From Ostreococcus lucimarinus (taxonomy: Eukaryota), in NCBI GenBank assembly GCA_000092065.1, contig CP000591.1: a stretch of DNA of 64,000 bases; one strand, 5' to 3'. The notes under the pieces were generated by a model that worked only from the letters and a program-made list of their open reading frames with translations, searched no databases and was not told the origin of the DNA. The first letter of the stretch is position 1. Every line of letters begins with the position of its first letter. The position numbers and the translations under genes were made by a program. Positions 8,627 to 47,181 of the stretch are shown one piece after another.

Positions 8627-8908
8627 GCCGACCGACCGACCGACCGACCGACCGACTGGTGTACAAACAGTGACACGCGAAATAACCATCGCCGCGACGC
8701 CACTGATGGGAATCTTCACGTATCGAAGAGCCGACCGACCGACTGGTGTACAAACAGTGACACGCGAAATACCCATCGCCGCGACGCCACTGATGGGAAT
8801 CTTCACGTATCGAAGAGCCGACCGACCGACTGGTGTACAAACAGTGACACGCGAAATAACCATCGCCGCGACGCCACTGATGGGAATCTTCACGTAATGA
8901 AGAGCCGC
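8627..8908. repeat. (CCGA)6 followed by an 87-bp tandem repeat x3 in the kinesin/AsnRS divergent intergenic region
   Basis: Units begin at 8654, 8741 and 8828 (gactggtgtacaaacagtgacacgcgaaataaccatcgccgcgacgccactgatgggaatcttcacgtatcgaagagccgaccgacc). The differences I noticed are aataacc/aataccc and, in the last unit, gtatcg/gtaatg. Confidence 0.9.
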
Positions 8909-17867: not shown

Positions 17868-18908
17868 TCAGAGCGAGTACTCGCCGCGTCTTCCCGCGCG
17901 CACGCGATGGAAAAACGCTCGGATGTGGAGCGAACTCTCGGCCAAGACGCTGAGGAGGAAGAAGAACAAACCGTAGACGAAAAATCCAGCGAAAGGCTTG
18001 TCTTTGGGGAATAGGATGAAGGATGAGATCACCGTCAGGGCTTTGCGGACGGTGGTGACGGCGGTGGCGGAGGTGGCGCCGAAGTGCCTGGTGAGCGTCG
18101 AGAAGAAGTAGGCGCCGAAATAAAACGTCACCGAGCGAGCGAAGAGCAGGACGAACGCGCCCTTGACCGTGCGAAGGTACGTGATCGACCCCGAGCCTTC
18201 GAATATGACGACAAATAAGAACGCGAACACGGTACCGATGGCGTTCGTGTACAGGATATTTTCTCGCACGCCCGCTCCGTAGTTCCGCATCGCGTGCTCG
18301 GACACGTTCGTCTGCAGCGATCCCAAAAAGATCGCCACCACGGACAACCCGAATCCCAGAGCCAACTTCACGTCTTCCGACAACCCCAAAACCGCTTCCC
18401 CGTCGTTCGTCGTCGCCGTCGCCGGCGTGGGCATCGTCGCCTCGTTCGATCCCAACTCGCGCTCGGCGATTCCGAAGAACGCCACGGCGACGACGAGCAG
18501 CGACGCCGCCACCACCTGATGCGGCTTGTACGTCCGCCGCAACCAAACCGCGCTGATCGCCATCGTAAACACTAATTTAGACGATCGCAACACCGTCCCC
18601 GTGGCGTAATTAATCCATTTATAACACAGCTTCCCCACCGCGCTGTACGCCGCCAACAGCAACGCCTGCAGCGCGTACAGCTCTAAAGGCGCCTTCCGCT
18701 TCGCAAACAGCGTCCCGTCCGCGATCGAACTCGCGGACGATATCAGCGCGAACACCATCAACTCCGCCAGCGCCACCGTCCAGTAATAGTCAAAATTCGG
18801 CAGCGACTTGTACACGTATTCCTCAAAGTAGCACGACGCGCCGATGAAGACAATCGCGCACGTCCCCGCCACCGCGAACGCCGCGTTTTCCGACATCTCC
18901 GCCCCCAT
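17868..18908 (-). CDS. UAA/SLC35-type nucleotide-sugar (or PAPS) transporter, about 10 TM
   Basis: The track ORF runs to 19778, but its upstream 290 aa are Arg-rich junk overlapping the opposite gene. The hydrophobic core starts at MGAEMSENAAFAVAGTCAIVFIG (ATG 18908 or 18896). SLC35B-like features: LRSSKLVFTMAISAVWLRRTY, TVRKALTVISSFILF. Confidence 0.75.
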   Translation of the reverse strand: MGAEMSENAAFAVAGTCAIVFIGASCYFEEYVYKSLPNFDYYWTVALAELMVFALISSASSIADGTLFAKRKAPLELYALQALLLAAYSAVGKLCYKWINYATGTVLRSSKLVFTMAISAVWLRRTYKPHQVVAASLLVVAVAFFGIAERELGSNEATMPTPATATTNDGEAVLGLSEDVKLALGFGLSVVAIFLGSLQTNVSEHAMRNYGAGVRENILYTNAIGTVFAFLFVVIFEGSGSITYLRTVKGAFVLLFARSVTFYFGAYFFSTLTRHFGATSATAVTTVRKALTVISSFILFPKDKPFAGFFVYGLFFFLLSVLAESSLHIRAFFHRVRAGRRGEYSL

Positions 18909-19247
18909 GAGCGCGCCTCCGTACGCGCGTCCGCCGTCCGCGGCGCGCTCGACGCCCGGCGCGTCCCAGTCCGCCGTCGCCGTCGCGGGCGCGTCCCTCC
19001 GAACACCATCGTGGCCCGTCTGCGATCGCGCGAAACCGCGGCGCGCGTCAGTCGGCGAACGCGCTCGCGGTTCGCGCGATCGGCGCGTTTTCGCGCGTTT
19101 TCGCGCGCGTCCTCGCGCGCGCGCACCCCGAGCAGCAGCGTCTCGCGCTCGCTGCGGTCGCTCGACGACATCGCGCGACGCGCGCGACACAGAGTGACGC
19201 CGCGCGCGCGGCGTCGAGATCCGCTCGGCGCGGCGACGACGGCGTCG

Positions 19248-19491
19248 ATGACGTCCGCGTCGATGGTATCGACGCTCGCGGCGCGCGCGAGAGCGAACGT
19301 CGCGCTCGCGGTCGTCGCGATCGCGATCGCACTCGCGTTGTTCCCGCTGCTCGCGCCGCTCGCGCTGGGCGGTTTCGTCGTCGCGCGCGCGGTGCGCAGG
19401 GACGCGCGCGAGGAAGAGGACGTTTCGGTGAAGCCCGTCGCGGGGACGGGCGGGGACGTCGCGGTGCGAGAGAGGGCGCGGGTGGAGGTTG

Positions 19492-19551
<60 letters not shown>

Positions 19552-22133
19552 CGGTGGCGCTCACGGGCTCGGCGGCGATGCTGGCGAAGATGCGGAAGAG
19601 CAGCGCGTTGACTGGAGAAAAACGCGCGACCGCGGCGCAGGGTGCGAGCACGAGCGCGAAGGATGGTGTGGATGAGACGGCGACGAACGCGAAAGCGACC
19701 CGAACGTTTATATTGCACGGCGGCGAAGCGGCGTCGCAAATCGCGAAGGATTTGGCCGCGCAGGCGGAGAAAGAGCACGGAATTGCGTTGAATGTGATGA
19801 CAATGGATGATTTCAGAGACGTAGAGTTCGATAAAGAACCCTGCGCGGTGGTTTTCGTGGTCGAGACGGTAGAGAACGCGCAGCCGGCGGAAGCTGCGGG
19901 ATCTTGCGTGCGCTTCTTCAATCGGAAACGTAAGGAAGGGACGAATCAGGCTATGCTGGCGGGGAAGATGTCATACGCGGTTTTAGGACTCGGTGATACA
20001 AACTTGTTACTCGATCGCCAGACGACGACGGCGAAAGATTGTAACCAGGCTGCGCAGACGTTGGATTCGGCGCTCGCCGCTCTCGGCGGCGCTCGAATCG
20101 TCCCCCGCGGCGAGGCAAACGACGCCGTGGGTTTGGACGAAGACGTTGTACCGTGGGCCAAGTTGCTTTTCCCAAAATTGTCTGAAGTTCACAAAGGGAT
20201 TGAGGCGAAAAAAAACGCAAAGCTATGCTTCTTGTACGGCTCGCAGACCGGTAACGCGACGGAAATTTGCAAAAATCTCGCCGCCGAGGCGAGCGAGAAG
20301 GGGTACCCCGTGGAGGTGTGCGCGATGAATGAGGTCGAGCCAGAAGATGTCATCAAACCTGGCGCTGTGATTACGTTCGTCGTATCCAGCACCGGCGACG
20401 GTGACGCTCCGGATAACTGCGACACATTCTTCACTCGCCTCAAGCGCAAGGCAAAGAAGGAAAAAGGCGAGGGCGCCATCGGCGTCCAGTACGCCGTCCT
20501 AGGACTGGGTGATCAAAACTACAGCGCGTTCATGGCTGTGCCGCGTCAGTTCTCGCAAACGATGGAGAACTTGGGCGCGAAGTGTTTCGCTAAGCGCGGT
20601 GAATGCGACGACACACTTGGTTTGTACGAACAAGTTGACGCATGGACGAGCACGTTTTGGTCTCATCTCGAAGTCGCTCGAGGAAACTCACACAAGTTGC
20701 GCGAGGGTGAGACAATCGTGGAAGACGCTAATGCCGCCACTGAAGCTCCAAAAGGCGATTCGAAGCCACCGCAAGCGGCTGCGCCGGCGAAGAAAGTCGA
20801 AGGCGTGCCACCACTACCAATCTGCCGATCTGAAGTGCAGTGGCTGCCGAAAACGACAGAAGTGGTTGCTAATCGCGTCGCGCCCGGTCCAGATTCCGAA
20901 GGTGCATACACCGTCTCCTCGCCGTACATGGCGACTATTCACAAGCGTGAGGTACTCACAAACTTGAAATCCGATCGGCGAGTGTTGCACATGGAGTTTG
21001 ATCTCGGATCAAGTGGGATCTCTTACAAGCCGGGAGATTCCATTGGCATCGTACCGCAGAACGACGCCGAGCTGGTTCGAGCCATCGTCGATCGGCTGGG
21101 TCTCGATCAAGCCGCCATTTTCACGCTGAATTGGAAGAAAGGTGACACGAATGAACACGCGACTCATCCGTTGCCGCATATTCACACCCCGTGCACGGTA
21201 AAGAGTGTGTTCACGAATTATATCGACATCACGGGATGTCCGCGTAAGTCGCTCCTTCGCGTTCTCGCCGAACACTGCGGCAACGCGGAGGAAAAAGACG
21301 CCCTCTTGCACCTTTCATCGCGTGGTGGTCGAGCAGAATACGAAACACAGATTCGCGCGCAGTCACCGACGCTATTGACGCTCTTGAACAATTATCCGAG
21401 TTGTTGTCCTCCGTTAGCCGAGCTTTTAGATGCCCTCTCTCCGCTCGCGCCGAGACTGTATTCGATCACATGCGCGCCCGAGGTGGCACCAACAACGCCG
21501 TCGGTTGCCTTCAGTGTCGTGCGGTTCCAGGTACCCAGCGGTGAACATCGCCTCGGCGTCGCCACGAACTGGCTCGACGAGATATCGGTCGACGACAAGT
21601 GCGAGCACAAAGTCCCGGTGTACATCAAGCCAAGCTTGAAGTTCGGCCTGCCCGAAGACTCGAGCGCGCCGCTAGTGATGATTGGTCCGGGTACCGGCGT
21701 CGCACCATTCCGCGGTTTCCTCCAGTCCAGACGCGCTAAAGCACAAAAAGGCGGTCGATTATCTGAAGCTATGTTGTTCTTCGGCTGTCGCAAGGCAGAT
21801 GAGGACTTCCTGTACGAAGCCGACTGGAAGAGTTTCACCGCCGATGGCTCGCTGACAAAGCTCGTCTGCGCCTTTAGCCGCGAGACCGCAGAAAAGGTAT
21901 ACGTGCAGCACAAAATTGAAGAGCACGCCACCGAAGTCGCGCGCTTAATCTCTGAGGGCGCTTACGTCATGGTATGCGGCGACGGCGCGCACATGGCCAA
22001 GGATGTCCACGCCGCCCTCGTCCGCGTCGTCGCTCAAGCCGGCGTCTGCGGCGTCTCTGACGTCAAAGCCGCCGAGGCTCTCCTCGCCGACTTCACTAAA
22101 TCCGGTCGTTACGTCCGTGATATTTGGAGCTAA
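19248..22133 (+). CDS. Membrane-anchored diflavin reductase (NADPH-cytochrome P450 reductase / methionine synthase reductase family) with two tandem flavodoxin-like modules
   Basis: Track ORF 19011 starts at GTG; the first ATG is at 19248 (MTSASMVSTLAAR). TM VALAVVAIAIALALFPLLAPLALGGFVV, poly-Thr16, a degenerate flavodoxin-like module (TFILHGGEAASQIA...YAVLGLGDTN), a canonical FMN module (LCFLYGSQTGNATE...YAVLGLGDQNY), FAD/NADPH domains (RLYSITC, GPGTGVAPFRGF, VMVCGDGAHMAKDV), and the C-terminus GRYVRDIWS. Confidence 0.88.
19503..19550 (+). repeat. (ACG)16 microsatellite encoding poly-Thr inside the reductase CDS
   Basis: An uninterrupted acg run, in frame with the CDS, translated as T16. 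Confidence 0.95.
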
Positions 22134-22356
22134 CGCACGCGCGTTCGTATTGTTTAGATTTTAATTTCTCATTTCATTTCATTTCATTCCACTCCACTCT
22201 CGTTCCGTTTCACCAAACTCCTGCGGGCGAGTTGGGTGTTACGCGTACACGCGCGCCCCTCAGACCCGCGCGCGCTTCGCCGCGGGCTAAAATGCGCCGT
22301 CGTGATCGAGGAAACGACCCTCCGATGGTGTCGTCGACGTTCGTCGTCGTCCTCGT
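20619..22356 (+). repeat. Segmental duplication, copy 1 (1,738 bp)
   Basis: Matches 27064-28801 at a constant offset of +6445 with no indel that I could find. It covers the last 1,515 bp of the reductase CDS, the 158-bp spacer and the first 22 codons of the GH1 gene. Confidence 0.95.
22292..22356 (+). pseudogene. 5' ghost of the GH1 beta-glucosidase gene (first 22 codons only)
   Basis: MRRRDRGNDPPMVSSTFVVVLV is identical to 28737-28801. After 22356 the sequence diverges (ASKFRAC, then stop). Confidence 0.85.
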
Positions 22357-22381
22357 AGCAAGCAAGTTTAGAGCTTGCTAA

Positions 22382-22498
22382 CTTTTGACTGTAGAGGAAC
22401 ACGCCAAGTTCGTCGATGGACTTACGAAGCTGGGCAAAGGCAACTGGCGTGGGATCATTCAACACTTCGTTCAGTCTCGAACGCCGACGCAGGTCTAA
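22382..22498 (+). pseudogene. Isolated fragment of a SHAQKYF-class (DIV/RAD-like) MYB/SANT domain
   Basis: My translation in a frame the track does not report: [38 protein letters not shown]-stop. This corresponds to the WTxEEHxxFLxGLxKxGKGxWRxIxxxFVxxRTPTQVASHAQKYF pattern truncated before SHAQKYF. There is no ATG, and a stop lies immediately upstream (22379-81). Confidence 0.6.
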
Positions 22499-22522
22499 TC
22501 ACACGCGATAGATCGGTCGAAC

Positions 22523-23386
22523 TTAAGTCTGGGGCATTTCAATCTCTCGGTCCAAAGCTTCCGCGCCCAACGCCGAATATCTACATCGTGAGCGTCGTGC
22601 ACGTGTTGAAACTGCCCACACTGACACCATGGTAGTCGCCAACAAGCCCAGCGTTACGTAGACAAGTGTCAAACAACTGAAGTAACTGTTTTGAGGCGAA
22701 CGCTCTGAGGCGAAACATAGAGCGCCGTGCAAATCTTCATCAGGTTCGAGCGTGATGTTACGTTGAAGAACGAATACGTATCGCTTGAAGGGCATTGATG
22801 CGCCACCTGAAGCTGTGATATGAAATTCCACCGTCTCAATCGAAGCAGATTTCTCAGGTGCGCACCAAATTAAGTTGTGGACGGTGGCTTTGCGCGTCGT
22901 GTACATGCGTCGACCAGAGCAGGCGGTGGCCGGCCTGTTCACGTTCCCATTCAAAAGCACGCCTTGATCGTGAAAGGATCCCGCAGAAGCGGTGATCAGC
23001 ATCATCGAATTCGGGTCTTCGTGCGATGCCGCGAGACCCAAGCGGCAGCCATCGCAATATTCTCGTTTACCGGGAGGGAACGTCCACGCAGCGGGGATCT
23101 GCCTCGTGGGTTCATTTTCGTCGTACTGCGCATCCTCAACATCAGTGTGGTTTGCCCAACTCAGCAGCACACTCGTGTTTGTGGCATCTATCGGTGCTCC
23201 GTGACCAGCAGCACGACGTGTGGGGTGTACGCGAGCCATCCCACCTTCGCAACGCGCGTCGAGGCGCAGTTCGGTCGGATACGACTCCACCAAAACCAGT
23301 CGCCAATCGAAGATTGCCACGGCGACGGCGGCGCATAGGCGCGCCGGATGCCGCAGACACATGTCGCCGCGTCGACATCGGTTCAT
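22523..23386 (-). CDS. Type I membrane protein with a possible Reeler/DOMON-like beta-sandwich ectodomain
   Basis: ATG at 23386, signal-like ARLCAAVAVAIF, and C-terminal TM CLTLVYVTLGLLATTMVSVWAV. The ectodomain pattern C-x2-M-x-V-H...HG...ITASAGSF...C...VHNLIWCAPEKS..VEFHITASGG resembles my memory of the Reeler-domain pattern. The family call is low confidence. Confidence 0.6.
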   Translation of the reverse strand: MNRCRRGDMCLRHPARLCAAVAVAIFDWRLVLVESYPTELRLDARCEGGMARVHPTRRAAGHGAPIDATNTSVLLSWANHTDVEDAQYDENEPTRQIPAAWTFPPGKREYCDGCRLGLAASHEDPNSMMLITASAGSFHDQGVLLNGNVNRPATACSGRRMYTTRKATVHNLIWCAPEKSASIETVEFHITASGGASMPFKRYVFVLQRNITLEPDEDLHGALCFASERSPQNSYFSCLTLVYVTLGLLATTMVSVWAVSTRARRSRCRYSALGAEALDREIEMPQT

Positions 23387-23455
23387 AGGGTTGTAGCGCC
23401 CGTCCTGGTCCTAGCCCGTCATGTAGCGTTGACGCGCGTGTTCTGCCCCACCCAA

Positions 23456-23483
23456 GTCGTCTGTCGTCTGTCGTCTGTCGTCT
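23456..23483. repeat. (GTCGTCT)4 heptanucleotide repeat in the divergent promoter of the insert genes
   Basis: gtcgtct x4, then the degenerate unit gttgtcg. Confidence 0.9.
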
Positions 23484-24042
23484 GTTGTCGGGGGGTGTCC
23501 GTTCGCGACGGACAACATACCAGCAAAGCTATGACTCAAAGGCTTTGTTCGGTCACGCGCGCGCACGCTCGCACGACTGAGCGCCGTCGACTCCTGATTC
23601 CACACGTTCAGCGTCGTCGGAATCATACGGGAAACCCGGCAGAGAAGCGCGGGGAAGTACGCATCGCGTTCGCGCGACACTGTCCGACGTAAAACGCGTA
23701 TAATGAGACATTTTCCAATCAAGTTTTGTAAGAAGGTTGAAATATACTTAGTAAATAATTATGCGAGGCCCAATAGTTCTTTTAAATTATCTAATACGAC
23801 GTGCGACCGACCAAATCCGACTAATGCACGCGGCAAGTATGGAGGAGATATTTACATGGAGGATTATCCACTAGATATTTTTTGGATATTTACTCCGCAT
23901 CGAACGAGTTACGACTCAACAATAGAGGGACCGTTGCGCGTGGCCGGCACGTGCCGGCCACGCGCCGCCACGTGCGCGAGGTCCCTACGCCCGTCTCTCC
24001 GCAAGCATCACACGACGACGCGAGGAATTCTACGCGAAGAAG

Positions 24043-25713
24043 ATGCAAATCGAACGAAGGAAACGAAATGCGCGAGCGCTCTGCGCACTTGTTGTTTCTG
24101 CGACGCTTGCGAACACCGCGAGCGCGCAATTAACATACATCGCAGGATACGAGCCACGCTCCAACGTCGTCCAACATTCCCAAGTCGACTTGGACATAAG
24201 GGATATCATTAGTTCTTTCCCGAAGTGGAAGGGTGGAGACAGCATTTACAATGGCGGACTTCTGAACGACTGCACCACAGTGGCAGGCGCGTGCAACTGG
24301 AATGGGACCAGTAGTCTATACCCAACATTGTGGGACGGCACTTGTACGCACACCTGCCCTGCTGCTGACTCGGCAAATCCGGGCCAAAAGTGCACTTTAA
24401 GCGCGGCGGATGCATGTTTGTCCACTTACGGTATTTATAAGTATGGTAAGGGATCGTTCAAGGGGAACAACAAGGATGACGCGGCGTCGATGCGGACGCT
24501 TCGCGGGTTTGCAACGAAACTTGGTGATAAGGGTGCCTCAGCGCGTGTTGCCGCGAAAAACAACCCGTTTATCAACAAAATGAATAAATACTGGGCGAAA
24601 CAGGGGCTGAATGAATTGACTTGGGGTCAAGATATCATCGAAGCTGCTTTCAAAGGTACTTGTGTCAAGAACGGTAACTCGTGTGTAAAATCAGGGGGAG
24701 TAAATCTTCTCGATTTTGGCACGGTCGGAAACGACTTCAGGGTGGAAGTGATAAAGAAAGGTATTATTTACTTGAACATCTTTCCTTACGTCATTTGGGA
24801 ATTTCAAGACGCTATCAACGACTGCCATGGTGGTGACTTGGGCGCGAACGATGAAATTCCCGGAGGAGGTTCAGTACACGCTTGGGATGAAGCCGTAGCC
24901 TTTTACACTGGTTCGCTCGAGGGCATCTTAAAAGGCGGTAACAATGGCCTCGCCTCATGCGATGACGGTAATTGTGAGTTGCAATTTCAACTGTCAGATT
25001 ATCGCTGCACGAACTTCGGTACCTGCACCGCCGATGCTGATGGTGACCCGTGGAGTGGATACTCAAAAAATAATGAAGAGATCTTCAAACTCTTTCAACA
25101 AGGTGAAGGTGAAATTACTGAAGCCGCTGCAAGCTCCAATACTGCGGCGACGAAATGTGACTTGCCGGATCGCACCCACGAAAAGGCTGTTACGAAAATG
25201 CTTGTTCCTTTCGTGCAAGGATGCATGAGGTACTTGTGGAAGACAAAAGATTCGCAGAAAGCTAAGGAAGCAGGCGAGCTCTTTGCGTTTGCATCCGCTG
25301 CACTTCCTTTTATCGATGCGGTAGACCCTGTCGCCGCTACTAAGTTGTTCACACGTGCGTGGAAACTAGATTTCACTACTTACACGTATGAAGAAACTAA
25401 GCAGGGCATCGAAGGCACCCTTTCGAGACTCGGTGCTGGTGAGGGCATTGGTACAATATCTTGCGCTGACATTGGCGACCTCGTTGACAGCAGTGATCAA
25501 CTGCTCGCTGCTGGCTGCACGGATCCCTCATCTCCCTCATCTTCCAATAATGACACCACTCTCGGGCTGGGTATTGGGATTCCACTGGGTGCCATCGCAA
25601 TCACCGCGTTGGTATTTGTCGTGCTTTTGTGGCGAAAGAGCTCAGCAAACAGCAAGCGAGTCGAAGAGTTAACCATGCAGCTGAGAGGTCCTGGTAAGGA
25701 CTTCTATCCGTGA
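24043..25713 (+). CDS. Secreted, C-terminally anchored Cys-rich protein; candidate FEA1/ISIP2a (phytotransferrin)-family iron-uptake protein
   Basis: ATG at 24043, signal peptide ALCALVVSATLANTASAQ, a Cys-rich ectodomain of about 480 aa containing GGSVHAWDEAVAFYTGSLEG, a Ser/Pro linker, TM LGIGIPLGAIAITALVFVVLLW and a short basic tail. The architecture matches phytotransferrin-type proteins. The family call is from memory and needs an HMM search. Confidence 0.6.
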   Translation: MQIERRKRNARALCALVVSATLANTASAQLTYIAGYEPRSNVVQHSQVDLDIRDIISSFPKWKGGDSIYNGGLLNDCTTVAGACNWNGTSSLYPTLWDGTCTHTCPAADSANPGQKCTLSAADACLSTYGIYKYGKGSFKGNNKDDAASMRTLRGFATKLGDKGASARVAAKNNPFINKMNKYWAKQGLNELTWGQDIIEAAFKGTCVKNGNSCVKSGGVNLLDFGTVGNDFRVEVIKKGIIYLNIFPYVIWEFQDAINDCHGGDLGANDEIPGGGSVHAWDEAVAFYTGSLEGILKGGNNGLASCDDGNCELQFQLSDYRCTNFGTCTADADGDPWSGYSKNNEEIFKLFQQGEGEITEAAASSNTAATKCDLPDRTHEKAVTKMLVPFVQGCMRYLWKTKDSQKAKEAGELFAFASAALPFIDAVDPVAATKLFTRAWKLDFTTYTYEETKQGIEGTLSRLGAGEGIGTISCADIGDLVDSSDQLLAAGCTDPSSPSSSNNDTTLGLGIGIPLGAIAITALVFVVLLWRKSSANSKRVEELTMQLRGPGKDFYP

Positions 25714-26896
25714 GAGGTCCTGGTAAGGACTTGAGTCTTCTCTATGAGGTGCTGCTCCGATAGGCTACTACATTGAGCCCAGCACATTGAGCCCAAGAGC
25801 GAAGAGCTCGTTTAATTTAATGCACATACTACTTGAAATACCGTCTCACCATTTGCCGCCGTTTGCCGCCGCCGCGTTGATCGAGCATGACTTGGACGTG
25901 TTACCGAACGAAACGTAACGAGCCAGGTGGCGTTCGTAGGGTATTGAAATGCAGAAATTTGTATCCGTGAGTCGCAGCTAACTTTGAGCGCGACACGACG
26001 CGAGGTGCGCGCGAAGGCAAAAAGTTACATATTTTACCGTTTTTTTTCGAAATCACGTGTAGTGCATTATGGTACCACCTAAAACATGGTGGCTAATACA
26101 CACAGCACCACACTATAGATAAACACGACATATAATATGTACAGAACTACATTGAGCGGCTTGCCAAGCGTGGCCCACAGAAAGTTCTGGTTCGAGTCGC
26201 GCGTTTGTTGCGCGCAGCAGCTTTCCTTGCACTGCGAGCTCGAGTTTTCGCACGCTGGCTCAGTACTCTCTGTTCGTAAGGCGCGCGTGAAGGCTCTAAT
26301 CGAACGGAACTCCAGACGCGCGGCGTGTGGCATCGTTCGTCGCGCGCCGTAGGGCCACACACGTGCACTCCTCGCAGCAGAGACTACGCGTCTCCGCTCA
26401 CGTTCAGAGAACGAAGGGCGTGCGACGCAGTCTCGTCGGCACTGGAGCATTCTGAGGGCGCGCGCGAGGGTGACACTTGCTTACGCTGATGTTCTCGGCG
26501 GAGGTCCCGCGTACAGAGCGTCGCCGCGACGGCAAGTGACATGCAGCCACTCGAAGTCGTGCGACGAGCGGCGACGACGCGGTTGTAACGCACACGCGCC
26601 GGCCCCGGGCACGAGACGAAACCGAAAAGACGGTTCGTAGAAAAACGCGCGTGTTTGGCACGCGCCCGGTGAAACGTGAGCGAAAAACCGAAAAGTATAC
26701 CTATAGGGTGTAGCGCTTCGATGTATGATGCAAATGGAATTACGGTACTTTATACGAATGCCCCTAACGACGAGACGATACCGATTGGGTAAAGTTCTGG
26801 CGACCCGCCGCTACGCCCAACACAAATTGGTCCCACAGATGCATTCCCCAAAGTGAGGGACTGGAATCAAAGGCGGGCAAGAAAACCGCCGCATGG

Positions 26897-27065
26897 CTCG
26901 CACCCCGTGCACTGCCAGCGTCGCCCGAGGCCACGCTCCGCGTGAAAGTCGGCGCATCGCGTGCGAGCGCTGCCGCATAACTCACACCCCGTGTGCCGCC
27001 ATTATCGTCGCCTGAGGCCACGCCCCGCGAGAAAGTCGGCGGATCGCGTGCGAGTGCCGTCGCGG
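26897..27065. repeat. Imperfect 84-bp tandem repeat x2 abutting the right breakpoint of the insert
   Basis: 26897-26980 and 26981-27065 are about 80% similar by eye (ctcRcaccccgtg...gtcgccYgaggccacgcYccgcgWgaaagtcggcgSatcgcgtgcgag...). Confidence 0.75.
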
Positions 27066-28578
27066 TTTGTACGAACAAGTTGACGCATGGACGAGCACGT
27101 TTTGGTCTCATCTCGAAGTCGCTCGAGGAAACTCACACAAGTTGCGCGAGGGTGAGACAATTGTGGAAGACGCTAATGCCGCCACTGAAGCTCCAAAAGG
27201 CGATTCGAAGCCACCGCAAGCGGCTGCGCCGGCGAAGAAAGTCGAAGGCGTGCCACCACTACCAATCTGCCGATCTGAAGTGCAGTGGCTGCCGAAAACG
27301 ACAGAAGTGGTTGCTAATCGCGTCGCGCCCGGTCCAGATTCCGAAGGTGCATACACCGTCTCCTCGCCGTACATGGCGACTATTCACAAGCGTGAGGTAC
27401 TCACAAACTTGAAATCCGATCGGCGAGTGTTGCACATGGAGTTTGATCTCGGATCAAGTGGGATCTCTTACAAGCCGGGAGATTCCATTGGCATCGTACC
27501 GCAGAACGACGCCGAGCTGGTTCGAGCCATCGTCGATCGGCTGGGTCTCGATCAAGCCGCCATTTTCACGCTGAATTGGAAGAAAGGTGACACGAATGAA
27601 CACGCGACTCATCCGTTGCCGCATATTCACACCCCGTGCACGGTAAAGAGTGTGTTCACGAATTATATCGACATCACGGGATGTCCGCGTAAGTCGCTCC
27701 TTCGCGTTCTCGCCGAACACTGCGGCAACGCGGAGGAAAAAGACGCCCTCTTGCACCTTTCATCGCGTGGTGGTCGAGCAGAATACGAAACACAGATTCG
27801 CGCGCAGTCACCGACGCTATTGACGCTCTTGAACAATTATCCGAGTTGTTGTCCTCCGTTAGCCGAGCTTTTAGATGCCCTCTCTCCGCTCGCGCCGAGA
27901 CTGTATTCGATCACATGCGCGCCCGAGGTGGCACCAACAACGCCGTCGGTTGCCTTCAGTGTCGTGCGGTTCCAGGTACCCAGCGGTGAACATCGCCTCG
28001 GCGTCGCCACGAACTGGCTCGACGAGATATCGGTCGACGACAAGTGCGAGCACAAAGTCCCGGTGTACATCAAGCCAAGCTTGAAGTTCGGCCTGCCCGA
28101 AGACTCGAGCGCGCCGCTAGTGATGATTGGTCCGGGTACCGGCGTCGCACCATGCCGCGGTTTCCTCCAGTCCAGACGCGCTAAAGCACAAAAAGGCGGT
28201 CGATTATCTGAAGCTATGTTGTTCTTCGGCTGTCGCAAGGCAGATGAGGACTTCCTGTACGAAGCCGACTGGAAGAGTTTCACCGCCGATGGCTCGCTGA
28301 CAAAGCTCGTCTGCGCCTTTAGCCGCGAGACCGCAGAAAAGGTATACGTGCAGCACAAAATTGAAGAGCACGCCACCGAAGTCGCGCGCTTAATCTCTGA
28401 GGGCGCTTACGTCATGGTATGCGGCGACGGCGCGCACATGGCCAAGGATGTCCACGCCGCCCTCGTCCGCGTCGTCGCTCAAGCCGGCGTCTGCGGCGTC
28501 TCTGACGTCAAAGCCGCCGAGGCTCTCCTCGCCGACTTCACTAAATCCGGTCGTTACGTCCGTGATATTTGGAGCTAA
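27064..28578 (+). pseudogene. 3' ghost of the diflavin reductase gene (FAD/NADPH half only, no flavodoxin module, no in-frame ATG at its 5' end)
   Basis: Track ORF 27067-28578 starts at TTG. An in-frame stop lies at 27013-15 and the first ATG codon is only at PYMATIHK. It carries GVAPCRGF where the full gene has the conserved GVAPFRGF. Confidence 0.7.
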
Positions 28579-28801
28579 CGCACGCGCGTTCGTATTGTTT
28601 AGATTTTAATTTCTCATTTCATTTCATTTCATTCCACTCCACTCTCGTTCCGTTTCACCAAACTCCTGCGGGCGAGTTGGGTGTTACGCGTACACGCGCG
28701 CCCCTCAGACCCGCGCGCGCTTCGCCGCGGGCTAAAATGCGCCGTCGTGATCGAGGAAACGACCCTCCGATGGTGTCGTCGACGTTCGTCGTCGTCCTCG
28801 T
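27064..28801 (+). repeat. Segmental duplication, copy 2 (1,738 bp)
   Basis: See copy 1. The differences I found are T27162 versus C20717 (synonymous Ile) and G28154 versus T21709 (Phe to Cys). Confidence 0.95.
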
Positions 28802-30515
28802 CGGCGTCGTCGCCCGCGCGAGCGCGCAGACCCACGCGCACCAACACCATCGAGGCGAAACGAGCCACGGCGACGGAAACTTTGTCACCTTCCCACCGTC
28901 GTTCGCGTTCGGCGTCGGAACGTCGGCGTGGCAGATCGAAGGAAACGGTGGTGATCGCCCGCGATCGGTGTGGGACGCGTTCGTGAGCGAACTAGGAGAG
29001 GAGAAGAGAGTGGAGGCGGAGCGCGGGATCGGCTTTCACGAGCGATACGCGGCGGATGCGCAAATGATGGCGGATGCGGGAGTGAAACATTTCAAAATGT
29101 CCCTGAGCTGGCCGAGGTTGATGCGCGCCGACGGGAGCGCGATCGATGAAGGGTTCGAGTATTATCAGAACGTTTTCGGGGCGCTACGCGAGCGAGGCGT
29201 GGAACCGCACGTGACGCTGTTTCACTGGGACACGCCGATGTGGTGCTGCGCCAACGAAACGATCGCGAGCGGGCGTGGGAGCGTGTGCGAAGGAGCTTGG
29301 GTGAAGGATGAAATCTTGAAAGATTTTGAGAAGTACGCGGATGCGGTGTTTAGTAGACTCGGGAAGGGGATAAAATATTGGACCACAATTAGTGAGCCAA
29401 AAACCGTCGCAGAGATGGGCTACGGTGCGGGCCTTCACGCGCCTGGGCGTCGGAGCGTGGAAGAACAACTTAAAGTGGGGCATAATATGTTGCGTGCACA
29501 CGCTTTGGCGGTGGCGCTCTATAGGGAGAAATATTCCCAGTTTGGAGGGAAACTTTCAATCAATTTGAATAGCGCTTGGGTCGAGCCGGCGTCGGATTCG
29601 CCGGACGACGTGCGTGCGGCGGCAAACGCGATGGATGAAGAGCTTGGATGGTTTGCCGATCCTATTTATAAAGGTGACTATCCGGCGAGCATGCGGGCGA
29701 GATTGGGGAGCTTTCTTCCGGAGTTCACCGAGGAGGAGCGCGTGCTCGTGAAAGGGAGCGTCGATTACTTTGCGCTCAATCACTACACGTCCTACTTCGC
29801 CAAGCATGTGACCGACGCGCAAGCTTCGTCGCAGCTTGGTTTGAGCGGCAGACCTCAGCCGTGGGAGATCACACTAGAGTCAGAAAAGAGCAAGAAACCA
29901 ATCGGCAAGGAGGCGCAAAGCGACTGGTTGCACATCGTGCCGTGGGGATTAGAAAAGGTTTTGCTGCACATCAAGGACAGATACGACGATCCAGCGATCA
30001 TGATCTCGGAGAATGGCGTCGATATCGCCGAGAGGGGCGATATCGCGGAAACTCTGGACGACACAACGAGAGTCAAGTTTATCGATGCCTATCTCGGAGC
30101 CGCTCGCGAGGCGATGCGTAAAGGCGCAAACGTTGTGGGGTACTTTTATTGGTCGATGTTCGACAACGTCGAGTGGGTGGATGGGCGATCGAAACGATTT
30201 GGTTTGGTTTATGTCGATTACGACGGCAAGTACGGCGAAAAGATGAAGCGCTATCCAAAGAAATCTCTCGAGCACTTCTCCTCCTACATGCGAGGAGAGC
30301 ACGCCGAAGAACCAACCCTCGGTGCCGCGCGCGTGCGACACTCGCTCGAAGACTCTTTCGTTCAAGTCGATCCGAGGCGTCAGGGCGAAATCTTCGCATT
30401 GCAAGGCATGGCGTTGACCATCGCCTGCGTCTACGCCGCGGCAGCGGCGTTCGCCGGCGGCGTCAAAATCGTCGAGCAAGACGTCGAGCAAGACGAACGC
30501 TCGTCCCTCGTCTGA
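28737..30515 (+). CDS. BGLU: GH1 beta-glucosidase with signal peptide and C-terminal TM anchor
   Basis: Track ORF 28569 starts at TTG inside the reductase 3' end; the first ATG is at 28737 (MRRRDRGNDPPMVSSTFVVVLVGVVARASA). FPPSFAFGVGTSAWQIEGN, LFHWDTPMW, acid/base TISEPK, nucleophile ISENG, YFYWSMFDNVEW, and TM LTIACVYAAAAAFAGGV. Confidence 0.9.
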   Translation: MRRRDRGNDPPMVSSTFVVVLVGVVARASAQTHAHQHHRGETSHGDGNFVTFPPSFAFGVGTSAWQIEGNGGDRPRSVWDAFVSELGEEKRVEAERGIGFHERYAADAQMMADAGVKHFKMSLSWPRLMRADGSAIDEGFEYYQNVFGALRERGVEPHVTLFHWDTPMWCCANETIASGRGSVCEGAWVKDEILKDFEKYADAVFSRLGKGIKYWTTISEPKTVAEMGYGAGLHAPGRRSVEEQLKVGHNMLRAHALAVALYREKYSQFGGKLSINLNSAWVEPASDSPDDVRAAANAMDEELGWFADPIYKGDYPASMRARLGSFLPEFTEEERVLVKGSVDYFALNHYTSYFAKHVTDAQASSQLGLSGRPQPWEITLESEKSKKPIGKEAQSDWLHIVPWGLEKVLLHIKDRYDDPAIMISENGVDIAERGDIAETLDDTTRVKFIDAYLGAAREAMRKGANVVGYFYWSMFDNVEWVDGRSKRFGLVYVDYDGKYGEKMKRYPKKSLEHFSSYMRGEHAEEPTLGAARVRHSLEDSFVQVDPRRQGEIFALQGMALTIACVYAAAAAFAGGVKIVEQDVEQDERSSLV

Positions 30516-30951
30516 CGCCATCGCCCACGATCGACACATAGCAAACAAATTCGCTTAAACGAGTAAACAGTTGAGACTTAGCGCGCGTTGAAACAATCAC
30601 ATGCACGGTATTGAACCATGGCGTGTACACGAGTCTCCGAAGACTCGCGTGCTTCGGGCGCTCCGCGCCATCGCGTCCACGTCGACGCGATGTGACCTTC
30701 GCCACGATCTCGCCCTCCTCGAGCGAGGTTTCGCGAACGCGCTTGCTCGCGACGAGCTCCGGCGCCGCGCAAAGCTTCGCGAGACGACTCGCAGCCGCGC
30801 GCGCACATATCGCTCGGTCGCCCGCGTCTTGACCGGGCGCGAGCGCGATTTGCGCGAGCCGCGCGAAATTTCGGTCCCCCGCGACGCGCGCGTTCTCCGC
30901 CACGCGTCGGTGGCGTCGCAGAAACTTTTTCACGTGCGTCTTCTTCGTCAT
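30463..30951 (-). CDS. Doubtful hypothetical ORF (MTKKTHVKKFLRRHRR...)
   Basis: This is the only ATG-initiated stretch with GC3-rich coding-like codons in the 1.1-kb gap between the GH1 and DUF829 genes. Its last 50 or so codons lose the codon bias and overlap the GH1 3' end by 53 bp, so the end, and even the reality of the gene, are uncertain. Confidence 0.25.
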   Translation of the reverse strand: MTKKTHVKKFLRRHRRVAENARVAGDRNFARLAQIALAPGQDAGDRAICARAAASRLAKLCAAPELVASKRVRETSLEEGEIVAKVTSRRRGRDGAERPKHASLRRLVYTPWFNTVHVIVSTRAKSQLFTRLSEFVCYVSIVGDGVRRGTSVRLARRLARRF

Positions 30952-31445
30952 GCCTCCATGTGACGTTTCGTCTCGGCGTCTCGACCTTGTGACGCGGCCT
31001 CGGACGCGCGCGAGGGCACCTCGGCACTCTGCGACGCGCGCGCGACTCGGCGCGGTCGTCGCGGACGCGTCGCGAAAGAAGAAAAAAAGTCGAGCATCGA
31101 ACCGCGCGTCGTTCGAGCGCCGCGCCGCGGCGCGCGCGACGCGCGGACGCGCGAGATGGGGCGCGTTGAAGCGGCGTTTCTCGGCGCCGGATCCCGCCTC
31201 GGGCGGCGCCTCGGGCGTCGCGCGCGCGACTAGCAAGACACGAAAACGAAGGAAAGAAAGCGCGTACGAATTCTTTTGAATCGATGTGCGCGGCGATGGA
31301 CGCGCGCGCGCGCGTTCGCGCGCCGACTCGCGCGATCGTCGTCTCCGAGACGGGCCGCGCAGACTGACCCTCGCGCAGAGGCCGACGCCAGAAGACACGC
31401 GAAACAAGGCGGCGATAGCGTCCAAACTATCGCTCGCCTGCGGCA

Positions 31446-31478
31446 GGTTAACCCAGGGTTGACCCAAGGTTGACCCAG
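31446..31478 (+). promoter_or_regulatory. 11-bp motif GGTTRACCCAR x3 in tandem, 130 bp upstream of the DUF829 gene ATG
   Basis: ggttaacccag ggttgacccaa ggttgacccag. GGTTGACCC also occurs at 40701-40709, in the loop of a hairpin. Confidence 0.5.
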
Positions 31479-31607
31479 CCGCAGTACTACACCCTCGCGG
31501 CGCGAGGACGCGAAGGAGGGACAGCTCGCTCGCGCGATCTCGTCGAACGACCTAGAGCCCTCGAAAGTAGCGATTGTAGTACGTCGCGTCACTCGCAGCC
31601 TCGCGCG

Positions 31608-32543
31608 ATGCTTCGAGTCGCCGCCGCGCGCGCGGTCGCGCGCACCCTCGCCCCCGCGAGCGTCCGCGCCGCCCGCCCGCGCGCGCGCGACGCGCGCCGG
31701 GCGCCGTCTCGTCGCGCGGCCGCCTCGTTCGCCGCGAACGACGACGTGCGCGCGATAAAACTCGCGCCGTACTGCGAACTCCTCACGCGGTCGAACGACG
31801 CCGAACGACCGCTCGCGATATGCGTCGGATGGTTTGGAGCGTCGTTGAAACACGTGAAGAAGTATGCGGCGATGTACGTCGACGCGAATTGCGACGCGGT
31901 GGCGATCGCGCCGCCGAGCGCGGCGATGCTCGTGCCGGCGGCGGTCGATGCGTACGCCGACGTAATCCTGCGAGCGCTCGCGCGGCACGTTCGCGGAAAG
32001 TGCGTCGTGCACGTGGCGTCGAACGGAGGGTTCATTTTCGCTGGAAATTTAATGCTCAAGGCGGCGAACGGCGACGCGACGGCGCGCACGATTTTTGAGC
32101 GGACGAAGGGCGTCGTGTTCGATTGCGCCCCTGGAAATTTGCGGCCCGATATCGTGGCGCGGGCGTTCGCGGCTGTCGTTGGAGGCGCGAGCGCGACGAG
32201 TGAGCCATCGCCGTATTTCGAGGTGTTTGCGTCGTGGTTGTTAGGGAGAAGGGTTCTCAGCGAACGTTTGCTGAGGATCGATGAGTTGTGGGGCAAGGCG
32301 GGAGCGCCAGAGTCAATCTTGTTGCGTTGCCCGTCGATGTTCATGTACAGCGAAGCCGACGTACTGATTTCCCCACGCGAGATCGAGGCTTTCGCGACGC
32401 TCAGACAAGACCAAACCGGTCACAGGAGCACTCTTCACAAGTACGACGACGCTGGGCACTGCGAAATTGGCCGCGACGACTACGAAGATTACAAGAGCAA
32501 GGTGACCGATTTCTTAGAGCGCGTCGTGCATTCGGCGGCGTAG
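31608..32543 (+). CDS. DUF829/TMEM53-like alpha/beta-hydrolase-fold protein with an organellar presequence
   Basis: Track ORF starts at TTG 31470; the first ATG is at 31608 (MLRVAAARAVARTLAPASV). PLAICVGWFGASLKHVKKYAAMY, VHVASNGG, VFDCAPG, MFMYSEADVLISPREIEAFA, KYDDAGHCEI. Confidence 0.7.
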   Translation: MLRVAAARAVARTLAPASVRAARPRARDARRAPSRRAAASFAANDDVRAIKLAPYCELLTRSNDAERPLAICVGWFGASLKHVKKYAAMYVDANCDAVAIAPPSAAMLVPAAVDAYADVILRALARHVRGKCVVHVASNGGFIFAGNLMLKAANGDATARTIFERTKGVVFDCAPGNLRPDIVARAFAAVVGGASATSEPSPYFEVFASWLLGRRVLSERLLRIDELWGKAGAPESILLRCPSMFMYSEADVLISPREIEAFATLRQDQTGHRSTLHKYDDAGHCEIGRDDYEDYKSKVTDFLERVVHSAA

Positions 32544-45896: not shown

Positions 45897-47022
45897 GACG
45901 CGCGCGCAGGCGTCGATCGGCGTCGATCGCGCCGTCGCGCGCGCGCGCGCGACGACGCGAACGCCGCGGTGCGCGCGCGCGGCGTTCGCGTCGCGCTCGG
46001 ACGACGCGCCGTGCGTCGTCGACGACGAAGACGCCGAGGCGAAGCGAATAAAACAGCGCGCGCACCGAAAACGGAACCGCGCGCGGTGCAGGACCCGCGC
46101 GAACGAGCGCGTGGACGCGTTGCTCGAGAAGTTTCGCGCGCTGCGACCGCTCGAACGCGCGAACGACGATGGATCGTGGGAGACGGTGTACGCGGAGGAG
46201 GAGGAAGACCGGGACGACGGCGTCGACTGGGACGGGCTGCCGCCGGGCGCGGACCCGTTCGGGACGAATAAGAAGGGTGGACGAGAGCGAGGGATGCGGA
46301 AGCGGAATCAAGTGATGACGTTCGTGAAACACTTGCGAGCGCTACTTTCGCTGCGAGGGCGAAGGGAGATAAAGAGGTGCGTCGATTTTGGATGCGGTAC
46401 GGGGAACGTTTTGATGACGTGCGCGGCGACGTTTCCGGAAATCGACTTCGTCGGCGTCGATTTGAACGCGACGAGCATTGAGATTTTAAACTCGAGGATT
46501 CGGAAATCGGGGTTGACAAACGTCAGCGCGGTGGTCGGATTGATCGAAGACGGCGATACGTTCGGGGCGGACTGCGCGTTGGCGCTGCACGTGTGCGGGA
46601 GCGCAACGGATCGAGTGTTAAACAGCGCGGTGCGAGCGAGAATCCCGTTCGTCATCGCGCCTTGTTGCGTGGGCAAAGTTCAAGAGGGTGGGATGCGAAG
46701 CTTGAATCGCATGCGTAACGATTTGATTTCGCTCGATAAAATAGAAGACATCGAGCGGCCGAGGTCGAGGCTGATGCGAGCCGCGGGTTTCGATTTCGAA
46801 GCGTACATGTCTGCCGCGACTTTGGCCGATTGGAGCGGGCACCAGGGCGTGGATCCGAGCGATCCGAACGAGCCTCTCGCCGCGCTTCCGAGACGCGCGA
46901 AGAGCGCCATCGAGGCGGATCGTGGGGAGTTTGCACGAGAGCACGCTTACGACGTGACGTTGCACAAGATGCCCGCGCAAAGCGGCATTCGCGATGACGT
47001 CTTGGTCGGGATCCCACTTTGA
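45895..47022 (+). CDS. Class I SAM-dependent methyltransferase (Methyltransf_32/METTL25-like)
   Basis: VDFGCGTGNVLMTCA (SAM motif I), GVDLN, ALHVCGSATD...IPFVIAPCCVGK. Start is ATG 45895 (MTRAQASIG) or 45763. Confidence 0.7.
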   Translation: MTRAQASIGVDRAVARARATTRTPRCARAAFASRSDDAPCVVDDEDAEAKRIKQRAHRKRNRARCRTRANERVDALLEKFRALRPLERANDDGSWETVYAEEEEDRDDGVDWDGLPPGADPFGTNKKGGRERGMRKRNQVMTFVKHLRALLSLRGRREIKRCVDFGCGTGNVLMTCAATFPEIDFVGVDLNATSIEILNSRIRKSGLTNVSAVVGLIEDGDTFGADCALALHVCGSATDRVLNSAVRARIPFVIAPCCVGKVQEGGMRSLNRMRNDLISLDKIEDIERPRSRLMRAAGFDFEAYMSAATLADWSGHQGVDPSDPNEPLAALPRRAKSAIEADRGEFAREHAYDVTLHKMPAQSGIRDDVLVGIPL

Positions 47023-47181
47023 GCGCTCGCGTGTATTCTTTGTCTAATTGTTTGTCTATTGTTTCTATAGCTAGTCTACGTTGTCATGATTCTTGGTCGG
47101 GATCCCACTTTGAGCGCTCGCGTGTATTCTTTGTCTAATTGTTTGTCTATTGTTTCTATAGCTAGTCTACGTTGTCATGAT
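47000..47181. repeat. Perfect 91-bp tandem duplication spanning the convergent 3' ends of the methyltransferase and pseudouridine synthase genes
   Basis: 47000-47090 and 47091-47181 are identical by eye. Each copy contains the last 23 nt of the methyltransferase CDS including TGA, an AT-rich spacer (ttgtctaattgtttgtctattgtttctatag), and the tcatgat that supplies the pseudouridine synthase stop. Confidence 0.95.

Follow-up and report, generated by a model that had tools for sequence, protein, structure and literature searches.

A duplicated host segment brackets a 4.7-kb insert at the reductase-GH1 locus of Ostreococcus lucimarinus

How does a compact chromosome come to carry two almost perfect copies of a stretch of its own genes, with unrelated genes set between them? 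The question is posed by a locus of Ostreococcus lucimarinus CCE9901 at which an insert, bracketed by a direct repeat, lies between a diflavin reductase gene and a GH1 (beta-glucosidase family) gene. The 1,738-bp repeat is termed A here (A1 for the left copy, A2 for the right), the insert is termed B, and the left and right A/B junctions are J1 and J2; all coordinates are those of the window, the 64-kb stretch of DNA that was analyzed. The A-B-A arrangement is a real natural structure, seen in a second strain and in many ocean metagenomes. Judged from the sequence of the locus and its relatives, we think it probable that A-B-A is a natural variant of the O. lucimarinus lineage produced by non-homologous repair or replication template switching, most likely in one event.

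A-B-A structure in the reference and in independent assemblies

A base-by-base comparison of positions 20619-22356 with 27064-28801 gives two direct repeats of 1,738 bp each at an offset of 6,445, with zero indels and two mismatches (C/T at 20717 and T/G at 21709, and no others); identity collapses immediately beyond both repeat ends. Self-blastn of the window returns one ungapped 1,738-bp match at 99.885% identity, the sole long repeat within the 64 kb. The repeat bounds, the +6445 offset and the two substitutions described in an earlier note on this DNA are therefore exact, and the single long off-diagonal match lies at the offset that the note had led one to expect. Each copy of A consists of the last 1,515 bp of the reductase open reading frame (ORF), a 158-bp spacer and the first 65 nt of GH1. 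This is the unit content that the same note had claimed, with the GH1 portion now set at 65 nt, or 21 codons plus 2 nt. Its statement that both host genes survive intact, each leaving a truncated ghost facing the insert, agrees with the full ORFs at 19011-22133 and 28737-30515.

The structure is present in data independent of the reference. One Logan contig from run SRR23274481 (L001, 4,767 bp) is identical to window 22327-27093 over its whole length (100%) and comprises B plus exactly 30 nt of A at each end, which equals k-1 for k = 31, as is to be expected of an assembly graph that branches only inside A. A much longer contig from the Joint Genome Institute (L012, 607,933 bp) is colinear with window 12517-33386 and contains A-B-A. 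Its 99.4% identity, 93 mismatches and 12 gap openings identify it as another strain. A census of every fetched locus, 42 in total, was made with six junction 40-mers (left flank/A, J1, J2, A/right flank and two donor junctions). The complete set of four junctions, chromosomal and novel, was found in L012, L025 and L027; J1, J2 and A/GH1 in L031; J2 and A/GH1 in L024, L026, L028, L030 and L032; and J1 only in L014-L016. Altogether, J1 and/or J2 occur in 18 independent contigs. Contigs L025 and L027 were rejected as proof of exactly one unit, since short-read scaffolds may cross a loop just once.

Ancestral site, donor-type locus and junctions

Relatives of the reference show the site without the insert. 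In L002, a 42-kb ENA contig with 98.8-99.7% identity to the window right of A, and in L003-L006, which are ~73% identical to the window, the reductase is followed directly by GH1 with a single A. The earlier note had pointed to such an empty site in related strains or species as a check on its reading, and these five loci provide it.

The single A of L002 (11180-12911) differs from that of the window at 36 positions. The first ~490 nt of A hold 23 differences, with ~7% divergence further left, and the next ~1,080 nt hold 3; right of A, identity is 98.8-99.7%. Either diverged haplotypes have recombined at this switch in divergence inside A, or the metagenome contig is chimeric.

A homologue of B lies elsewhere in sister lineages. 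Ten loci (L009, the 208-kb contig L010, L011, L017-L022 and L033), referred to as donor-type, carry it in one conserved synteny: AP-3 delta, further on a repeat array, the B homologue (B'), a MYB intron and exon, then, further on, a gene for a 447-aa protein and an alpha/beta hydrolase gene. Their flanks are mutually homologous past both ends of B, and the lineages are 84-96% identical to B. The earlier note had suggested a search of the rest of the genome for a donor locus; a locus of donor type was found in relatives, in an AP-3 delta/MYB-like context. Within B, the first ~38 nt are intron-like, with a branch-point-like ctaac and a tag acceptor preceding the Myb exon, so that the left breakpoint falls inside a MYB-gene intron. 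The right breakpoint falls inside a tandem array, because the ~84-bp array continues in donor-type loci. These loci have more intron and upstream sequence before the Myb exon, and their array runs past the end of B. Because both features continue there, B is an arbitrary slice of the donor-type locus, without ends of its own. By these alignments, A-B-A is the derived state.

The GC content of B is 53.5% vs 60.2% for the window, falling to 35.5% in the stretch 23690-23900; GC at third codon positions is 0.52-0.57 in the two genes of B vs 0.685 for the reductase and GH1; and CGCGCG occurs 2.8 times per kb in B vs 9.1. The insert does differ in composition, as had been noted by eye, through its lower GC and scarcer CGCGCG. 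The low GC is already present in the donor-type locus. Rather than a random foreign load, the genes of B are a local block that has been relocated, a Fea1-family gene among them.

Several side observations concern the donor side. A metagenome scan with a 32-mer from the MYB exon returned donor-type loci only; a single-nucleotide polymorphism (SNP) of L012 inside the pattern put that strain's own donor site beyond its reach. A look-up of AP-3 delta, aimed at a donor locus lacking B in the A-B-A lineage, returned the donor-type locus L033 plus structurally different upstream regions in L034 and L035, none of them assignable to that lineage. The sequences upstream of AP-3 delta in these two (L034:1-2706 and L035:1-1611) are 99% identical to L033 for ~1.7 kb and then diverge completely; all that L034 keeps is a 184-nt stretch with 80% similarity to window 25881-26064. 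The donor side, too, is structurally polymorphic. The right part of B (25891-27063; 1.17 kb, non-coding-looking, without an Rfam match) is 99% identical between A-B-A-type and donor-type loci, and neighboring genes are 60-96% identical. This conservation explains chimeric contigs such as L029, in which a donor left flank, B', A and GH1 follow one another. L029 was considered as a true intermediate and rejected, since the 99%-identical right 1.17 kb lets a short-read graph cross.

The two novel joints can be read directly. At J1 (22356/22357), A ends in ...CCTCGT and B begins AGCAAGCAAG-TTTAGAGC; the corresponding donor-type region reads ...CCCT-AGCAA-AAATCGAGT-TTTAGAGC in 8/8 loci. This leaves 1 nt (T) of possible microhomology and a patch of ~10 nt, in which GCAA appears duplicated and which could be slipped or templated filler. 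At J2 (27063/27064), B matches L010 and L011 at 100% over its last 105 nt; from there the donor goes on as G/TAGC and the host as G/GTTT, giving 1 nt (G) of microhomology. On the aligned sequences, both junctions are without extended homology.

The age of the duplication can be approached through the differences between its copies. Both variable sites are T in the outgroups L002 and L003, so C20717, a synonymous change, is derived in A1 and G28154 is derived in A2. These CCE9901 substitutions are private, with one derived change per copy. They could instead be reference errors; the reality of the structure is independent of them. Mutation rates in Mamiellophyceae are 3.9e-10 to 9.8e-10 per site per generation (PMC5455958), and two changes over 2 x 1,738 nt give an estimate of ~0.6-1.5 million generations for CCE9901, assuming no gene conversion. 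The two A copies of L012 are identical, and the 16 A copies from L012, L013 and L023-L032 share one consensus, except for one base in one L023 copy. The youth claimed for the duplication in the earlier note is borne out by this identity.

Candidate mechanism and alternatives

Starting from an ancestral chromosome with the order reductase-GH1, a strand or broken end would have been copied or retained as far as GH1 codon 22 and then joined to a 4.7-kb piece of another locus. The captured piece would have extended from the MYB-gene intron to the ~84-bp repeat array. Its rejoining to the host 1,738 bp upstream of the departure point would have doubled that stretch, yielding A-B-A. In equivalent wording, the locus would be a tandem duplication whose novel junction has captured a fragment of kilobase scale, or a single-template "cycle of templated insertion". 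Two complete genes would have traveled to the new site in the insert, one for a 287-aa orphan protein and one for a Fea1-family surface protein. We infer that a single step sufficed. In a non-replicative route, two sister chromatids, or the ends at staggered breaks, would be joined with an offset of 1.7 kb and would enclose a free fragment at the joint. The replicative (copy) and the break-and-capture (move) routes are about evenly matched. The earlier view, that a recent insertion or template-switch event doubled 1.7 kb of target sequence, is upheld in that the empty site, the donor-type locus and the non-homologous junctions have all been seen.

Some observations weigh against this account or against its purely replicative form. 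Microhomology of 1 nt per junction is at chance level and does not discriminate end joining from microhomology-mediated break-induced replication (MMBIR). The J1 patch could also be ordinary lineage variation, the nearest donor-type loci being 96% identical in left B. A purely replicative templated insertion retains the donor copy; the L001 unitig, in contrast, passes J2 unbranched and goes on to 27093. If the donor copy had been kept, a branch would be expected at 27064, as the final 105 nt of B are shared without change by every donor-type locus that extends to this end (L010 and L011 in the alignment, L021 and L033 by junction 40-mer). No O. lucimarinus-named protein was present among the 40 members examined of the donor-type Fea1 cluster. 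From these sequences, it seems that B was relocated, or that the donor copy was lost later. A lost donor would be easier to square with the capture route. The origin may also have involved two steps.

Rearrangements of this type have precedents. Complex copy-number variants (CNVs) attributed to fork stalling and template switching (FoSTeS) or MMBIR, and tandem duplications with junction filler, usually contain filler of tens to hundreds of bases. The present locus resembles them in that a duplication is combined with an insertion at a novel joint, microhomology amounts to 0-1 nt, and one junction bears a short patch that may stem from slipped synthesis. It differs in that the inserted segment is 4.7 kb long and holds two complete genes, and its microhomology is too short to be diagnostic. 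In "cycles" of templated insertions, replication leaves the host, passes through one or more foreign segments and returns upstream, re-replicating a host segment (Li et al., 2020; PMC7025897). As in such cycles, the host segment at the Ostreococcus locus is doubled, the junctions lack long homology, and genes and gene fragments are juxtaposed (PMC7025897). In contrast to the cancer cycles, there is only one template, and the rearrangement is a germ-line one in a haploid alga, segregating among wild cells and not confined to a tumor. Moreover, copy-number gain of the template is the defining feature of the cancer class (PMC7025897), whereas the donor copy appears absent from this strain. A-B-A needs no new mechanism or element; it is an unusually well-documented natural case of a known class of rearrangement.

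Among the alternatives, ends-in (Campbell-type) integration survives best, although it is unlikely. A single crossover with a circle that carries target homology places an insert between perfect repeats. In this case, a 6.4-kb circle with B joined to one A would have entered the chromosomal A by a single homologous crossover, both non-homologous joints having first been made on the circle and not on the chromosome. The topology and the perfect repeats are exactly as expected from one crossover, and the locus shares with such integrations a bracketing by perfect direct target repeats and a reversibility by pop-out. Unlike Campbell-type integration, its A/B joints are non-homologous, and neither a vector or replicon nor a circle that existed beforehand is in evidence. 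The circle would itself need the same two non-homologous joints, which adds a step. Two contigs bear on the matter. L023 reads B-A-B-A-B-A without chromosomal flank, under a record name ending in "_c"; however, its three units differ (by an SNP at A position 834 and a 2-nt indel), which is more in line with an array than with a mono- or dimeric circle, albeit at only 2x coverage. L013 follows a B-A-B path, and De Bruijn graphs cannot separate a loop from a circle; yet the same path is obtainable from an A-B-A genome that lacks flank edges at low coverage. In L012, in the reference and, along the simplest path of their short-read scaffolds, in L025 and L027, the unit lies between chromosomal flanks.

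It is very unlikely that A-B-A is ancestral in the clade, with the empty sites of relatives produced by pop-out and the copies kept identical by gene conversion. Recombination between 1.7-kb repeats would indeed recreate a perfect empty site, and identical copies in many samples could reflect concerted evolution. However, relatives at ~73% identity also have the reductase adjoining GH1, and the B homologue occupies one conserved synteny in lineages 84-96% identical to B. The MYB intron and the repeat array continue in that donor-type context and are cut off in the window.

An origin of B as a mobile element, or as cargo of a mobile element or virus, with an unusually long target-site duplication, is extremely unlikely. 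Such an element would explain an insert flanked by a direct target duplication and having a GC content below that of its surroundings, but the low GC is shared with the donor-type locus, and the two ends of B fall, at a conserved locus, within an intron on one side and a tandem array on the other. Loci reaching the B boundary show two contexts only, and the derived-context junctions are always identical in the 40-mer census. A Pfam scan that covered 8 of the 30 insert ORFs of at least 60 aa, the main ones, found no transposase, integrase or reverse-transcriptase domain and matched Fea1 only; a later scan added the Myb fragment to the list. There were no inverted repeats of at least 40 nt in 18000-32000 and no terminal inverted repeats of B. 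The tRNA and Rfam scans had no match in B, a tandem-repeat scan gave no mobile-element signature, and neither B gene had a confirmed relative in IMG/VR (2.9 million viral contigs; two scans). A transposon or virus origin was rejected on these scans, in keeping with the earlier judgment, supported also by the breakpoints in an intron and a tandem array, that this is no ordinary transposon.

Finally, an assembly artefact, in which the Sanger reference of 2007 would have collapsed or duplicated a repeat, is hardly credible and was rejected as regards the junctions, given that both novel junctions recur in independent read sets and assemblies and that the 608-kb L012, from another strain, spans the whole structure. 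The earlier note had used the two substitutions to argue against an assembly duplicate. Its conclusion stands through the independent assemblies, whereas the substitutions themselves are the weaker evidence, since independent data did not confirm them, a point that the artefact explanation has in its favor.

Cargo, copy number and biological meaning

The features of the locus are collected in Table 1. From left to right, B contains the intron-like sequence, the Myb fragment, the orphan gene, an AT-rich region, the Fea1-family gene and 1.35 kb of downstream sequence. The 287-aa orphan protein has no Pfam domain and just 9 homologue clusters, all 82-95% identical; a C-terminal hydrophobic stretch, judged by eye, is predicted to resemble a membrane anchor. 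The intergenic region between the orphan and Fea1-family genes, which are divergent, is AT-rich. The palindrome in this region (GCGCGTGGCCGGCACGTGCCGGCCACGCGC) may be a regulatory site and is a candidate for one: its 22-nt core occurs once in the window, with 0 occurrences expected by chance, and the palindrome is kept in every A-B-A-type locus that covers its position, with no exact match in donor-type loci.

Table 1. Features of the reductase-GH1 locus in window coordinates.
Feature	Coordinates	Strand	Remarks
Diflavin reductase ORF, intact	19011..22133	+	Pfam Flavodoxin_1, FAD_binding_1, NAD_binding_1; first ATG 19248, giving 961 aa
Repeat copy A1, left	20619..22356	+	Continuous with reductase 5' half; bears derived C20717 (synonymous)
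GH1 ghost	22292..22381	+	Duplicated GH1 start (65 nt of coding sequence) reading into insert
Insert B, 4,707 bp	22357..27063	.	Homologue at different locus in sister lineages
J1 patch	22357..22366	+	AGCAAGCAAG; donor-type loci read AGCAAAAATCGAGT there (8/8)
MYB (SHAQKYF-type) DNA-binding exon fragment, 34 codons	22394..22495	+	Pfam PF00249 Myb_DNA-binding, 29.3 bits vs cutoff 24.4
Orphan protein gene, 287 aa	22523..23386	-	Exact match to annotated XP_001420500.1 / A4S4U9
Perfect 30-bp palindrome, CACGTG core	23936..23965	.	~80 bp upstream of Fea1-like ATG
Fea1-family (phytotransferrin/ISIP2a-related) gene, 556 aa	24043..25713	+	PF07692, E = 7.6e-11, 42.1 bits vs cutoff 25
Right part of B	25891..27063	.	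99% identical to donor-type loci otherwise 77-96% identical to B
~84-88-bp tandem repeat, two units	26888..27063	.	Array continues in donor-type loci
Repeat copy A2, right	27064..28801	+	Continuous with remainder of GH1; bears derived G28154
Reductase ghost	27067..28578	+	Open frame; half binding flavin adenine dinucleotide (FAD) and NADPH only
GH1 (beta-glucosidase family) gene, intact	28737..30515	+	Pfam Glyco_hydro_1, E = 1.5e-114

The duplication has left both host genes with partial copies. The reductase ORF has two Flavodoxin_1 matches along with FAD_binding_1 and NAD_binding_1, and its stop codon ends at 22133. Its GenBank model (XP_001420328.1 / A4S4U8, cluster member P0332) is partial and is named "methionine synthase reductase" in UniProt, and homologues carry either that name or NADPH-ferrihemoprotein reductase. 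Read from its first ATG at 27373, the reductase ghost is predicted to encode 401 aa, a complete FAD/NADPH-binding module without the flavin mononucleotide (FMN) domains. In CCE9901, the ghost has a Phe to Cys change within the motif GVAPFRGF, where outgroup sequences retain Phe. The 471-aa ghost product in its Phe form was found in 79 sample blocks and on 62 contigs, its frame intact and identical on all 62, and the end of B lies directly before A in 10/10 places examined. The Cys form of the ghost ORF was not found in the protein collection searched. For GH1, the start ATG is at 22292 in the ghost copy and at 28737 in the intact copy; the ghost ORF has 29 codons, MRRRDRGNDPPMVSSTFVVVLVASKFRAC, followed by a stop.

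The Fea1-family gene of the insert varies deeply between haplotypes. Its 556-aa ORF is 100% identical to a predicted protein of O. lucimarinus CCE9901, and by eye the product is predicted to have a signal-peptide-like hydrophobic N-terminus and a C-terminal hydrophobic anchor. Alleles were compared from window 24043-25713, L023:5373-7067, L028:462-1976, L032:234-1760, L009:709-2451(-) and L029:3622-5376. Their lengths are 556, 564, 504/508 and, in the donor type, 580/584 aa. Allele classes are 50-62% identical overall and 38-51% identical in the N-terminal half, and over the C-terminal ~50 residues, which form the membrane anchor and tail, they are all but invariant. The diverged alleles sit within A and right-hand B sequence that is 99-100% identical. 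On these comparisons, the gene looks like a hypervariable ectodomain between conserved arms. In L028:1-470, 127 nt identical to window 26127-26253 precede the 504-aa allele, with unrelated AT-rich sequence further upstream. This is either a second tandem Fea1-like gene within the B of some strains or a k-mer overlap artefact, the stretch being exactly 127 nt.

A characterized relative is Ot-Fea1 (ostta18g01980), which O. tauri induces under iron limitation and for which a knock-out was not achieved (Lelandais et al., 2016; PMC4855317). For this O. tauri protein, both the binding of iron and its induction when iron is limiting have been shown (PMC4855317). Like Ot-Fea1 (PMC4855317), the insert gene encodes a Fea1 domain together with, judged by eye, an N-terminus resembling a signal peptide and a membrane anchor at the C-terminus. 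Unlike Ot-Fea1, with its duplicated domain, it has a single Fea1 region in 556 aa. Homologues of 938-963 aa, ~42-50% identical to the 556-aa protein, may represent the double-domain form.

Unequal exchange and pop-out can act on direct repeats as long as 1.7 kb, and homologous events of this kind would now allow the number of 6.4-kb units to change. Zero units are present in L002, a related lineage with another haplotype, one in the window, L012, L025 and L027, and at least three in L023. This last contig (ENA record ctg73727_2x_c; 15,424 bp) contains 3 J2 and 2 J1 junctions at a period of 6,460-6,462 bp, has no chromosomal flank, and consists of units that can be told apart by an SNP at A position 834 and a 2-nt indel. 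It suggests an array of at least three units or circular multimers. Circles are hinted at by the "_c" suffix of its name and by the B-A-B path of L013, a Tara sample; as proof of an array or circle, L013 was downgraded, because a collapsed A with lost low-coverage flank edges gives the same path. The evidence leans towards expansion of the 6.4-kb unit, which rests on a single contig whose name suggests 2x coverage.

Amplicons flanked by repeats expand by unequal crossing-over in bacterial tandem amplifications and in the yeast CUP1 arrays. The Ostreococcus locus resembles these in having a unit between kilobase-long direct repeats, one long-read-style contig with at least three units, and an empty-site allele in a related lineage, whose A differs at 36 positions. 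It differs in that expansion is represented by one 2x contig only and that any selective agent is hypothetical. A bolder and doubtful proposal is that the A+B unit is a naturally amplifying cassette, in an array or possibly in circles, that varies Fea1 dosage, with conserved arms, namely the invariant membrane anchor and the 99%-conserved stretch downstream, perhaps serving to swap alleles, and an ectodomain under strong diversifying or balancing selection. Under this proposal, selection might come from a scarcity of iron or from a biotic antagonist, for example a virus that has the protein as its receptor.

Beyond the locus, other structural features were observed in the window. A 964-bp GC-rich segment (67.5% GC) at 30617-31580, between GH1 and a DUF829 gene, has no Pfam match and no terminal repeats; it is missing from L002, with a clean joint ...TTGAAC/GTCGCG..., and from the 73% relatives. 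Contigs leave the window sequence at ~31580 (L024 and L032) and at 31643 (L030), and L024 and L030 go on into other genes. Either the segment occurs more than once in the genome, or it marks a hotspot of rearrangement. Other tandem duplications are ~three 87-90-bp units at 8644-8907 (97.7%) and a perfect 91-bp pair at 47000-47181.

For genome work, the CCE9901 reference structure is correct at this locus, and short-read metagenome assemblies break or turn chimeric there. The locus represents a cleanly resolved natural duplication plus captured insert in a very compact haploid eukaryotic genome, in which the ancestral empty site, the donor-type locus and both junctions are all readable and the derived allele is detectable in ocean metagenomes worldwide. 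This population context and the cargo, a Fea1-family gene, lift the case above routine. It offers a wild phytoplankton model for the origin of such rearrangements and for the rate at which kilobase direct repeats expand, contract and homogenize. The locus could also show whether relocation and dosage change of an iron-uptake-family gene matter ecologically; if the cassette proposal were true, wild Ostreococcus could vary the dosage of a cell-surface protein of the Fea1/phytotransferrin family.

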